Assembly: GCA_964019425.1 (NCBI GenBank)
Contig: OZ025801.1
Location: 868,001-932,000, forward strand
Reading direction: 5' to 3'
DNA: 64,000 nt
Origin: Flectonema sp. DT1601
Lineage: Eukaryota
Made by a program: the position numbers and the translations under genes
Part shown: in pieces, positions 3 to 9,504 of the stretch
Layout of the letters: every line of letters begins with the position of its first letter
How positions within the stretch are numbered: position 1 is the first letter of the stretch
Notes under the pieces: generated by a model
Told to the model about the DNA's origin: nothing
The model's database searches: none
The model's input: the letters and a program-made list of their open reading frames with translations, nothing else

Positions 3-1000
3 ATAGGAATTCGTAACGAAACTCTGAAATCCTATTTAGGAGATGTGATAGATACTTTAGAAAGAATTCGTAACGAAGTTCTGAAATTTTTAAGATGTGT
101 GATGGATACTTTAAAAAGAATTCATAACGGAACTCAGAATAAATCCGATTTAGGAGGTGAAGCTTTGGAAGTAATTCATAACGAAACTCAGTATAAATCC
201 TATTTAGGACAAATGATACATATGATAACAGAAATTCGTAACGAAGTTCAGCATAAATCCAAATTAGGAGATGTGATAGATGCTTTGAATGGAATTTGTG
301 AAGAAACTCAGGATAAATCCGATGTAGGAAATATGATAGATACTTTAATAGTATGGCACGAACGCACTCGCAAACGCACTCAGGATAAATCCGATGTAGG
401 AGATGTGATAGAAGCTTTGAAAATAATTCATAACGAAACTCAGTATAAATCCGATTTAGGACAAATGATACATATGATAACAGAAATTCATTGCGAAGTT
501 CAGGATAAATCCAAATTAGGAGATGTGATAGAAAAATTGAAAGTAATTAATAACGAAACTCTGGATAAATCCAAATTAGGAAATGTGATGGATGCTTTGA
601 AAGTAATTAAAGACACTCAGGATAAACCCGATTTACGAAATGTGATACTTATTTTAGTGGGAATTCAGAAAGAAACTCTGAAATCCTATTTAGGAGATGT
701 GATAGATACTTTAGAAAGAATTCGTAACGAAGCTCTGCAATTTTTAAGATGTGAGATGGATACTTTAAAAATAATTCATAACGGAACTCTGAATAAATCC
801 GATTTACGAAAAGTGATGGATGCTTTAAAAAGAAAATTTAACGGACCTCTGGATATATTCGGATTAGGAGATGCGATAGATGCTTTAGAAGGAGGTCAGT
901 CCAATTTAGGAAATGTGATAGGTATTATTACAAAAATTTATGACCAAACTCGGGATAAATCCTATGTAGGAGATGTGATAGAAACTTTAAAAAGAATCTG
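3..1000 (+). repeat. ~60-nt (20-aa) degenerate coding tandem repeat, KSDLGDVIEALKIIHNETQx
   Basis: Recurring AAATCCgATTTAGGAgATGTGATAGA...ATTCaTAACGAAACT units, all in frame. Confidence 0.9.
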
Positions 1001-4000
1001 GAATCGAACCGAGTCAGGGAATTTGTGGTCCGCTGTCAATGATCTTACACCAGAATATAAAAGCTTACATTCAGGTATATATTGGGAGGGTTTAGCATTA
1101 CTAAAAGGTGGAACCAGGTGTCCCTTCGATACGATTGACGTGCTATACCGAAACGACAATCTAAAACAAGAGTTGGAAAAGGTAATTAAATCATTTGAAC
1201 ATATGTTACAAGACGATACTTTTATACAAAAGGATCTTATAATGCCAAACTTAACTAATAGGATAATTTATTGTTGTGATGGGCAAAACCTCAAGACGTT
1301 AACAAGTTATTTGCAATCTATGGATAGTAAGCATATTGCAAATCAAGATAGAAATCATTCGACAGACCAGTTGAGTCACACAGATGATACTGAATGCAGA
1401 CAAGATGGAAATGATTCATTTAGTTTAGGTCGTATACATAACCTTATGACATTGTCGTATGTAGCAGAAATAATAAAAGGATTTTCAGAGTCGCAACGAG
1501 AAACGTATTTTCCAAAAATTGCTTCAGAATTAAAAACATTACGTAATATTATAGATCATCCTGAGCGTAAAGAAAATTGGAAATTCTTAAAAAAACAAAT
1601 TTGTGTTGAAACGGATAATGATGGAGAAAAGATTGATGCTTCTGCATTGTTACGGGAAGTACACACCTGTGTTTGTGAGATGGCGGAGAATATTAATATT
1701 GAGACGGATATGAGTTACTTCCAGTCATCTGATAAAGTAAATACAAATCCTAATAGTAGTGTTGTGAAGAAAGCTTTTAAAAATAACGATAATAAAAGCG
1801 AAGACGAAGTAACAAAGATAAATTCTAATTGTGTAGCACCCAAAATTGGAGTAGAGGTTTTTAGTGATGTGAAGAAAGCAAAAAGTAAAAATAGCGATAA
1901 ACAGAACGCAAAAAGTAAAAATAACGATAAACAGAATGCAAAAAGTAAAAATAGCGATAAACAGAACGCAAAAAGTAAAAATAACGATAAACAGAATGCA
2001 AAAAGTAAAAATAGCGATAAACAGAACGCAAAAAGTAAAAATAACGATAAACAGAATGCAAAAAGTAAAAATAAAGATAAAAGCGAAAACAAAGTAGAAA
2101 GCAGAGTTGGAGAGATAAAGCAACATATCAGATCACAAGCTTTTCACATGATAACAGAAGAGGATCAGAAAATTTGTGATGAGCTTTCAGACGAAGCTTT
2201 GAAAAAACAAGTTAGATGGTACAGATTAGTCGGAAAGCATGAAAAGGTAGAATATTCCATTACCGAAGAGATACCATCAAAAACAGTTAGACCAAAGGTA
2301 CCTCGCCCTAAAAGGGTTGATCAACTTCAAGAGTGGTATCTAAAATATAAATTATCTAAAATACATGACATGCGAGAGTGTAATAGGGATATAGAAAAGT
2401 ATAATAAGAAGATAAAACGTTTAGAAGATCAACTCAATGACACGGAAGATGCGAATTTAAAACAATATTTAAAAAAGTGTATTGTTGATAATGAAAGAGA
2501 TAGGGACTCTGTATGTCAGTTGATTAACGATGCCACTTTTATAGTACAAAAGGTGCCGCTGATCCAGACATGTGATACTTTGTCTAAATTATCGTATGCG
2601 CTGGATAAGATTATTTATTTATTTGATTCTGAATTTAGCTCACTTCAATCCTGTTTACCAAAATCAGATGGATATCTTTGTTCCGCAATAGAGTTTTTTG
2701 TTTTAGTTGCAGGTTCTTTGGCACGTTCTTTGTTATCTGACAGCAGTCGTAGTTTGTTTAACACAGAAGTGTACGAAGTAATGGAAGATTTGCAAAAATT
2801 CAGAGGTGCTATAGCTCACGTTAATGTTCCCGAAACTAATTCCGATTATATTCCCGACCCATATTTATATGTTAAATATCTGAATGCAGCAGCTATTTCT
2901 GAAGAAGTGTCAAGAAAACAAGAAGCTCTACTCAAAGAGAAGGAAGATTTGCAGTCAGAATTAAAAAAAAGAAACAACGATGATTTTAAATTTATAGCAG
3001 AATTTGTTGTTTTACCAGAGATAAAAGAACATATCGAATTACAATCATTTCACAAAATAACAGAAGAGCATCAGAAATTTTGTGATGGGCTTTCAAACGA
3101 GCCATCTTTGAAACAAGAAGTTAGATGGTACAGATTAGTCGGAAAGCATGAAGAGGTAGAATGTTTCATTACCAAAGAGATACCATCAACAACAGTTAGA
3201 CCAAAACAAGTACCTCGCCCTAAAAGGGTTGATCAACTTCAAGAGTGGTATCTAAAATATAAATTATCTAAAATACATGACATGCGAGAGTGGAATAGGT
3301 CTATAGAAGATTTGGGACATCGACTCGATGCCACGGAAGATGCGAATTTAAAAGAAAATTTAAAACAGCGTATTGATAATAATGAAAGAGATAGGGACTC
3401 TGTATGTCAGTTGATTAACGATGCCACTGATATAATAGTTAACTTACAAGCACATGCTTTGTTTAAATTATCGTCTGAACTGGACAGTTTTACAGATCCT
3501 AAAAGAAGTATTACACCAGAGTGCTGTGGGTCTTTGAGAAGTTTGTTATCTAATGCCAGAAGTTTGGTTGAATTTGATTACGAAAGACCCCGCCAAGTAA
3601 TGTTCATATTGCAGCTACTTGAGACACTGTCCCTTGATGATAGCCAAATTTTCTTTGCTAAATGGCTTACACCATTTTATAACCGTCATATCCAAGAAGC
3701 TCTAGATAAGAAAGAGGAAGAATTACAAAAACTAAAAACAACGAAATATCGCTCACTTGATGATGATTTTGAATTTATAACAGAATTTGTTGTTTTACCA
3801 GAGATAAAAGAACATATCGAATCACAATCATTTCACGAAATAACAGAAGAGCATCAGAAATTTTGTGATGGGCTTTCAGACGAGCCATCTTTGAAACAAG
3901 AAGTTAGATGGTACAGATTAGTCGGAAAACATGAAAAGGTAGAATGTTTCATTACCAAAGAGATACCATCAACAACAGTTAGACCAAAACAAGTACCTCG

Positions 4001-8682: not shown

Positions 8683-9504
8683 AAAGTAAAAAGCAGATAT
8701 GGAGAGATAGAAAAATATATCAAACCACAATCTTGCGACAAGTTTAAGAACTCCGCAGTAGCTTGTCACAGCTTTAACGATGGCAATGTTGCAGCTGCAA
8801 TTCGAAGACGACTAAATATTACTTCCGAAAAGTTTAACCATGGTATCCCTGTAAGCGACGAAAAAGACACCATTAATCATAATAATTCCACACTTCACAC
8901 CTTAGACAAACGATTCCCAATACAATCACATCAATCTTCAGGGGAAGGTCTAATTGGAGGTGAGTGTGGATGGGCATCGCTGAATTTTGTTGCAGACCAT
9001 CTTAATCTTGACCGAATAGATTTCAACGATTTACAAGAACTACAACAAGCATTCTACGAAGAACATCAAAAAATAGAACCTGACAGCCACGAGCAAAAAC
9101 CATCCCTGGATGGCTGCTTCTCTTTAACCGTGCTGGGGGTAGCAAGCGAACAAAAACTCAACCGAGAAATCCGCCAGTATGTAGATCCCAGTTCTATGGA
9201 CAACCCAACAATAGCCGCCGCATTCATTTTAAACAAAGCTGGTGAACGAATGTCACACTACAAAGTGGCCCTTGTCTCCAAAGATCGCATTATTGTTAGA
9301 GACATTCTCAAAGGAGCGACAGACCGGCAATTATCATTTGACGATTTTAACAGAAATTTTAAACACCCAGAGTATTGTTTTCACATGATTTTAAGAAAAA
9401 CTCTGCAGGATAATAATAATGATAACGACTGTACCATGGCACCCTCGAATGAAGGAATTCTACTCCTCACCAATTCTAAGGAAAAGAGCTCCGATGGATA
9501 TTAA
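7546..9504 (+). CDS. 3' part of the giant gene: repeat unit plus C-terminal Josephin-like (papain-fold) deubiquitinase domain (~8925-9400)
   Basis: GECGWASLN...DGCFSLTVL...AFILN...SHYKV...RDILKG parallels ataxin-3/Josephin LCAQHCLNN...SGFFSIQVI...SFICN..EHWF...NSLLTG; Cys ~8965, His ~9256, Asp 9301. Confidence 0.6.
   Translation: MLSNARSLVEFDYERLCQVMFILQLLENRTLSLDDSQIFFAKWLTPFCNRHIQEALDKKEEELQKLKTRKYRSLDDDFEFITEFVVLPEIKEHIESQSFHEITEEHQKFCDGLSDEPSLKQEVRWYRLVGKHEKVECFITKEIPSTTVRPKQVPRPKRVDQLQEWYLKYKLSKIHDMREWNRSIEDLGHRLDATEDANLKENLEQRIDNNERDRDSVCQLINDATIIMVNLQARGALFKLWSELDSFRSITPECCGSLGRLLSNARSLVKFDNKRLRQVMSILQQLENGTLSLDDNQISFDREFKLFYNRHIQEALNKKKEELQKLKTRKYRSYDDDFEFMTEFVDDFDSSNCVAPKIGVEVLSDVKKAKSKNNDKSEDKVKSRYGEIEKYIKPQSCDKFKNSAVACHSFNDGNVAAAIRRRLNITSEKFNHGIPVSDEKDTINHNNSTLHTLDKRFPIQSHQSSGEGLIGGECGWASLNFVADHLNLDRIDFNDLQELQQAFYEEHQKIEPDSHEQKPSLDGCFSLTVLGVASEQKLNREIRQYVDPSSMDNPTIAAAFILNKAGERMSHYKVALVSKDRIIVRDILKGATDRQLSFDDFNRNFKHPEYCFHMILRKTLQDNNNDNDCTMAPSNEGILLLTNSKEKSSDGY

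Follow-up and report, generated by a model that had tools for sequence, protein, structure and literature searches.

A predicted tandem-HEPN RNase gene of likely endosymbiont descent, with a retrotransposon-derived protease tail, in a protist chromosome

Several described systems resemble the locus analysed here. In Rickettsiales, chimeric toxins of the cytoplasmic incompatibility (CI) type such as pLbAR_38 and CidB/CinB combine a dual nuclease with PD-(D/E)XK domains and a deubiquitinase (DUB) (PMC6133264). The active sites of HEPN proteins consist of two juxtaposed motifs, brought together in trans or, in Cas13, in cis, and a 2019 preprint reports cis pairing of HEPN domains only for Cas13 (10.1101/760058); the structure 5YEP represents HepT/MntA (PMC7641770). 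Among Penelope-like retrotransposons, a Josephin-like C-terminal extension has been described for Chlamys-1_cBra (PMC8557442, section 9). Diplonemid protists harbour Holosporales, Rickettsiales and chlamydial symbionts, and the text of the same study, supplements aside, reports for five strains no recent transfer from the Holosporales or Chlamydiales symbionts (10.64898/2026.01.29.702485). Here, we analyse 64,000 nucleotides of the Flectonema sp. DT1601 assembly GCA_964019425.1 (the window), at the start of which lies a long repetitive coding locus. We consider it fairly probable that this locus is a gene for a predicted tandem-HEPN RNase toxin, likely from a Rickettsiales-type endosymbiont, that resides in a protist chromosome, where its repeats have grown, it has gained a Penelope-like protease tail and it has been split by an out-of-frame triplication. 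What follows establishes the module family with its pair of invariant Rx4H motifs, the fusion of its relatives to DUBs or ankyrins, the descent of the tail from a transposon, and the breaks between frames.

The HEPN-like part of the locus is, on sequence comparison, a member of a real, rare protein family. With the module (residues 320-1010 of open reading frame 1, ORF1) as query, phmmer returned 23 matches among 1.84 billion representatives, of which 17 covered only the low-complexity linker and were set aside, one was the window's own piece and five were to the module. Eight database proteins (seven distinct) align with the module from end to end, sharing 15-26% identity; R514, N515, H519, R934, G935 and H939 are among the 15 positions that are invariant across the nine-row alignment. 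The strings RNIIDH and RGAIAH, pointed out by the first-pass annotation of this DNA, are present, and as Rx4H motifs both are invariant in 9/9 rows. A hidden Markov model (HMM) built without the window sequence scores ORF1 residues 325-1017 at 100 bits. The first 1010 residues contain five Rx4H strings where 1.0 is expected, and the remaining Rx4H strings of ORF1 are not conserved in the relatives; because motif occurrence alone is weak evidence, the case is carried by conservation.

Genome searches returned few further members. A pattern scan of species genomes confirmed one of 50 candidates, locus L001 in an uncultured Rickettsiaceae metagenome-assembled genome; scans of metagenome and viral contigs confirmed none of 97 and 27 candidates, respectively. 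An HMM search matched five of 130 Rickettsiaceae genomes (two with the full module, three weak and partial), and a search at the order level three of 400 genomes, where the match in G248 covers a single motif in a 240-aa ORF; loci L005-L007 are weak partial matches to the module. Several members are fused to other domains: L001 encodes a RickCE DUB (35.2 bits, cut-off 27) together with the module, L004 (Rickettsiaceae) combines ankyrin repeats with the module, P0052 has a C-terminal OTU domain (E 7e-11) and P0050 a weak N-terminal Ulp1 match (E 0.054). The two relatives with a taxonomic placement are both Rickettsiaceae, and the kinship with endosymbiont effectors suggested at first pass is thus supported. 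In L001, the module gene lies within a run of effector-like ORFs (4799-10819), including an ankyrin protein and a 1117-aa protein without a Pfam family over cut-off.

That the module is a HEPN RNase is a prediction we regard as highly likely; the individual lines of profile and model evidence are each modest and are taken together with the two invariant motifs. Segments 1 and 2 weakly match a HepT profile of 13 sequences, retained from 24 loci, in HHalign (Table 1), with the R/H pair of segment 2 in register. The E values of about 2e-4 for these segments compare with 0.38-0.45 for reversed controls, and reversed controls and the linker reached a probability of 0.3% or less. With a second profile, drawn from divergent rickettsial HepT-like proteins, no probability exceeded 1.1%. 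Segment 1 is probably non-catalytic. In the AlphaFold model computed from the nine-row alignment, the mean predicted local distance difference test (pLDDT) score is 58, and most of segments 2 and 3 are at 70-90. Using VIA-align with residues 852-976 (segment 3), 5yep_B ranked first (Z 9.1, root-mean-square deviation 3.0, 112/133 aligned), 7ae2_A fifth (Z 8.6), and 6of2_A and 1wwp_B further down, such that HEPN entries hold ranks 1, 5, 36 and 37 among the best 50 rows from 48,161 chains; judging from its length and the helical match, chain B of 5YEP would be the toxin. A scan of PDB sequences gave no HEPN or Josephin match over cut-off, and an Atlas search with segment 3 nothing useful (score 0.78).

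The protease-like tail has another source. The first-pass annotation had taken it for a Josephin-like domain of the effector. The tail was not inherited with the effector but comes from the C-terminal end of a Penelope-like retrotransposon of the Chlamys type, a fragment missed in that reading and out of frame with the HEPN part. When the whole window was compared with the element, the match was confined to this fragment, which corresponds to the last ~250 codons of a multi-copy element. A search with the tail found four proteins among 570 candidates, namely the window's own and three in which the tail is fused behind a reverse transcriptase (RT), representing clusters of 24, 59 and 1 members. 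The full element ORFs P0009 (1367 aa) and P0033 (1350 aa) have the order GIY-YIG, CxC, DK, RT, tail, lack CCHH and contain one Cys in the endonuclease (EN) region; in P0009, the GIY-YIG motif is at 241, CPC at 570, VDKG at 688 and the RT motif YIDD at 968, with the Pfam GIY-YIG match (E 0.007) under cut-off. By this domain layout and these motifs, the element is of the Chlamys type. A pattern scan for relatives of the element gave 0/130 metagenome candidates. Gene models P0037, P0040, P0041 and P0043 of Diplonema papillatum fuse the element RT with host genes under the host gene name.

The papain-type Cys501-His598-Asp613 of ORF3 (at nucleotides 8965, 9256 and 9301) is shared with the element: of the element proteins, which were selected because they span the domain, 15/15 have the Cys and the Asp and 14/15 the His. 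The Josephin assignment gains no support, as PF02099 gave no match at a maximum E of 10 in the window tail or the element copies, and the single-sequence model of the tail (pLDDT 44, best Z 3.8) was too poor for a fold search. Language-model neighbours of the tail in the Atlas are papain-type effector families (top score 0.94, YopQ cluster); because only one of the ten best neighbours shares that family, the YopQ-cluster family is probably wrong for the tail. The corresponding C-terminal position of sister elements is taken up by a USP domain (E 4e-16 to 2e-21) or by one that resembles OTU (E 4.9e-4, below the cut-off), which makes it likely that the element tail acts as a DUB. A pairwise test of P0045 against the OTU domain of P0052 was negative. 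Across Euglenozoan Chlamys-type elements, papain/Josephin-like (P0009/P0033), OTU-like and USP proteases occupy one position, in proteins that also include P0045/P0070 and P0039/P0042/P0044. When the other element family serves as outgroup, 13 tail changes are private to the window and none to the element (p 2.4e-4), and 14 more positions differ in all three; the window-private changes have a mean BLOSUM score of -0.46, and one hits a Trp kept in both element families. The open frame of the window tail would arise by chance with P 0.23-0.5, and its single internal gap, of five residues near the junction, is in frame. By these comparisons, the window copy is drifting and diverging faster than the element.

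As assembled, the locus consists of three overlapping stop-to-stop ORFs in three frames (Table 1). ORF1 is the final 2105 aa of the database gene call P0087 from the same 402,925-bp contig, a protein of 2240 aa whose first 135 aa lie upstream of the window and whose end precedes the protease. The first-pass annotation proposed that removing two 1220-bp copies restores a single RNase+DUB polyprotein. The arithmetic holds: because the ORF frame offsets match those produced by the triplication, an earlier uninterrupted frame is implied. The polyprotein itself does not, as the assembled sequence contains no uninterrupted RNase+DUB protein, the HEPN part and the protease being in separate frames. 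A single base distinguishes copies 1 and 2 of the unit; the identity between copies 1 and 3 is 98.3%, with one gap. Because the junction is novel and copy 3 differs at several sites, we favour a real rearrangement over an assembly error. The several repeat tiers noted at first pass are all found. The locus was also described there as very AT-rich, which overstates a GC content of 32-35% in most parts (27.5% in the linker) compared with 37-44% in eight neighbouring genes; G+C at third codon positions (GC3) is 0.23-0.28 in the locus and 0.28-0.35 in these neighbours.

Table 1. Coordinates of the features of the locus in the window
Feature	Coordinates	Strand	Remarks
ORF1	3..6320	+	2105 aa in window, open at 5' edge; HEPN module and repeats, without protease
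~20-aa degenerate repeats	3..1000	+	21 cores within the first 470 residues of P0087; no significant similarity to any of 7 family relatives compared
HepT-like segment 1	1017..1274	+	Without Rx4H, likewise in aligned relatives; HHalign to HepT profile P 49%, E 1.7e-4, 33 columns
HEPN-like segment 2	1407..1727	+	R514/H519 (RNIIDH at 1542) invariant in family; pLDDT 70-86; HHalign P 41%, E 2.7e-4
10-aa K/N/S/D low-complexity linker repeats	1873..2081	+	Not in relatives
HEPN-like segment 3	2556..2930	+	R934/H939 (RGAIAH at 2802) invariant in family; best structural match 5yep_B
Four ~260-aa units	3033..6155	+	Derived from linker+segment-3 region (46% identity), without RGxIAH motif
Tandem triplication, out-of-frame, 1220-bp unit	5035..8682	+	Copies 5035-6254, 6255-7474, 7475-8682; frame breaks at 6254/6255 and 7474/7475
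ORF2	6245..7540	+	Solely repeat units
ORF3	7465..9504	+	Repeat units, in frame with retrotransposon fragment
3' fragment of Chlamys-type Penelope-like retrotransposon ORF	8740..9486	+	87% identical to P0009 aa 1087-1340; papain-type Cys501-His598-Asp613
Decayed partial copy of 260-aa repeat unit	9720..10084	+	76-79% nucleotide identity; each of the three frames interrupted by stops; beyond the transposon piece

The history that we propose begins with the entry of a symbiont RNase effector gene into the protist nucleus. There, the gene would have gained the ~20-aa N-terminal repeats, the 10-aa linker array and the ~260-aa units that derive from the linker and segment 3, would have caught the retrotransposon protease tail at its 3' end and would then have been split by the triplication, which separated the module from the tail. 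Because the two conserved motifs share one chain, we suggest that segments 2 and 3 pair in cis, in a Cas13-like manner, to form one composite RNase site, with segment 1 and the helical linker as scaffold. In bacteria, the protein would likely be a host-directed effector, and its DUB may shield it from, or disarm, host ubiquitin signalling, as in CifB-type toxins. Because ORF1 is open over 2240 codons with all four catalytic-type residues, its product is most likely the working form in the protist, and most likely a cytosolic defence or suicide RNase; the motif-less repeat copies could be decoys or brakes, and the protease tail, with selection on it relaxed, is most likely carried along as a passenger. 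The role in defence or selfish killing advanced at first pass is an inference.

A number of results weigh against this account. None of the HEPN models of Pfam, NCBIfam and PADLOC reaches its cut-off (best HEPN_Apea, E 0.12), segment 3 matches the HepT profile over its full length with R/H in register at a probability of just 0.7% (E 0.076), and Foldseek with the module model gave no match at E<=0.001, the fold check called for at first pass. Moreover, unrelated helical bundles score within 1 Z of 5yep_B, and the fold search barely covers segment 2. The three DUF86/HepT-like segments claimed at first pass are upheld moderately, through the matches of segments 1 and 2 and the two conserved Rx4H motifs, and fall short in library models and in the profile match of segment 3. 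As to descent, L001 was found by a pattern containing motif 1, which is thus present there by construction, full-length relatives occur in just two of the 130 family genomes scored, five of the seven distinct relatives are without taxonomy, and in the tree of the family no branch is starred and the window's own branch is long, so that it shows neither donor nor direction. A Rickettsiales-type donor is therefore inferred, not read from the tree. Finally, the placing of the host rests on transposon relatives, not host genes, nine of which fell in clusters lacking a named member.

The same facts bear on other explanations. Because profile and fold matches are all weak or tied, the module might be no RNase but a scaffold of helices in an effector, with a different function for its R..H motifs; we judge this improbable in view of two separate invariant Rx4H motifs, in register with the HepT motif, and of a fold search in which HEPN entries took first and fifth place. 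Even less credible, indeed very improbable, is endosymbiont DNA mis-joined to a host contig. Diplonemids do harbour Holosporales, Rickettsiales and chlamydial symbionts (10.64898/2026.01.29.702485), and the region is more AT-rich than its neighbours. However, the transposon piece at the supposed join is a diverged private copy and not an identical repeat, and module-derived DNA lies on both sides of it, beside host-type poly-T spacers; the decayed repeat copy beyond the tail in particular argues against a mis-join.

The whole locus could also be a decaying relic, that is, a transferred effector without current selection that expands by slippage and unequal crossover and was hit by a transposon. 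This has in its favour a nonsynonymous to synonymous ratio (pN/pS) of 0.7-2.5 among the ~260-aa repeat units, the out-of-frame triplication with the decayed copy downstream, and the lack of a paralogue among candidates of 30-1156 aa. Yet ORF1 is open through 2240 codons, the four catalytic-type residues have all survived a divergence of 74-85% from the relatives, and GC3 is close to the host value, which fits long residence, so that we find the relic explanation rather doubtful. Slightly less weight still goes to the opposite idea, that the fused RNase+DUB polyprotein is a real, selected product, that the triplication reflects faulty assembly or a single allele, and that the protist rebuilt the bacterial nuclease+DUB design from a transposon part. 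The transposon piece is in sense orientation and in frame with the repeats, its Cys-His-Asp is kept and its one gap near the junction is in frame; relatives have CE-clan or OTU DUBs, sister elements USP or OTU-like domains at the same position; and triplication copies 1 and 2 are one base apart. This idea is unlikely given the excess of private, partly non-conservative changes in the tail with loss of the conserved Trp, the sizeable probability of an open tail frame by chance, and the novel junction and copy 3 differences that speak for a real rearrangement. Equally unlikely is its widest form, in which Rickettsiaceae would have a new class of cis-pairing tandem-HEPN RNase-DUB effectors, of which a diplonemid would have taken one, rebuilt the design with its own retrotransposon DUB and would use the fused allele as a defence or selfish toxin; if true, there would be a symbiont-type transfer in a group with none from its current symbionts, as far as the main text of 10.64898/2026.01.29.702485 goes. 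On balance, we retain the proposal of a captured tandem-HEPN RNase gene with a passenger tail.

The setting is that of a protist genome, in agreement with the first-pass annotation: the neighbours are eukaryotic genes (AAA ATPase, the gene at 11184; nucleotide-sugar transporters; EGF/TIG; FYVE/RING), and the long ORFs of the window are all on the + strand. The nearest named relatives of the local retrotransposon are from Diplonema papillatum, Rhynchopus humris and Entosiphon sulcatum, which makes the host probably a diplonemid. Downstream of the locus, a ~120-bp spacer repeat is present in four degenerate copies (9558-10871). A hammerhead-like CUGAUGA...GAAA core in its first copy (9582-9619) was rejected, having no Rfam support and a pattern count (10 seen, 7.9 expected) not above chance. 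Farther along, two near-identical nucleotide-sugar transporter genes of one 90% cluster (16734-26594) flank broken RT-like ORFs (19230-21237; RVT_1 E 0.0015; DIRS-like by eye). In a 2012-aa ORF with 300-bp repeats (28280-34318, GC 57%), two RNase H1 N-terminal domains accompany a USP domain (E 9e-10); by eye, the ORF is a putative retroelement fragment with a restriction-like endonuclease end. A 57-nt inverted repeat (36132-37679; 91% complementary, arms 1434 nt apart) is possibly a small DNA transposon.

In our survey of mainly open-access literature, PMC3710099 included, no description of the tandem-HEPN module family was found. The predicted RNase effectors of this family would stand to RNA as the dual-DNase+DUB toxins that underlie cytoplasmic incompatibility stand to DNA, and they may extend the cis pairing of HEPN domains beyond Cas13. 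The locus itself is a candidate transfer of a Rickettsiales-type effector to a protist nucleus, and in it a retrotransposon's accessory protease has been placed in frame within a host gene.

By analogy, the module family looks like an RNase version of the dual-nuclease+DUB chimeras of the CifB type. Like pLbAR_38 and CidB/CinB, its members are big modular proteins of Rickettsiales with two nuclease domains, CE-clan or OTU DUBs and ankyrins. Unlike them, they have a predicted HEPN RNase pair in place of the PD-(D/E)XK DNase (a PD-(D/E)XK family gave no match, the module being helical with Rx4H motifs), one member is in a protist nucleus, and no cognate antitoxin was identified, where the Pfam scan covered only the neighbours of L001 and no test was aimed at antitoxins. 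With HepT/DUF86 (PF01934), for example SO_3166 (5YEP; PMC7641770), the module shares an Rx4H in register, a predicted helical fold and a weak profile match, whereas HepT has ~130 aa and an MNT antitoxin and the module comprises three HepT-like units in ~700 aa, below the Pfam cut-off. As in Cas13, there are two Rx4H-bearing domains per chain, here without a CRISPR link or guide-binding lobe and with a cis pairing that is proposed only. With regard to the tail, its donor has the N-terminal GIY-YIG, CxC, DK, RT and C-terminal Cys-protease-like extension of the Chlamys elements described in PMC8557442, and differs in its Euglenozoan hosts, in sister families with USP or OTU-like domains and in that the window holds a 3' fragment only. 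In comparison with the bacterial Josephin-like DUBs PcJOS/PaJOS (10.1101/2024.07.24.604956), the tail has no PF02099, PDB-sequence or fold match and a Cys-His gap of 97 instead of 121-122, but it keeps the Cys...His...Asp order, with a His-Asp gap of 15 against 16.

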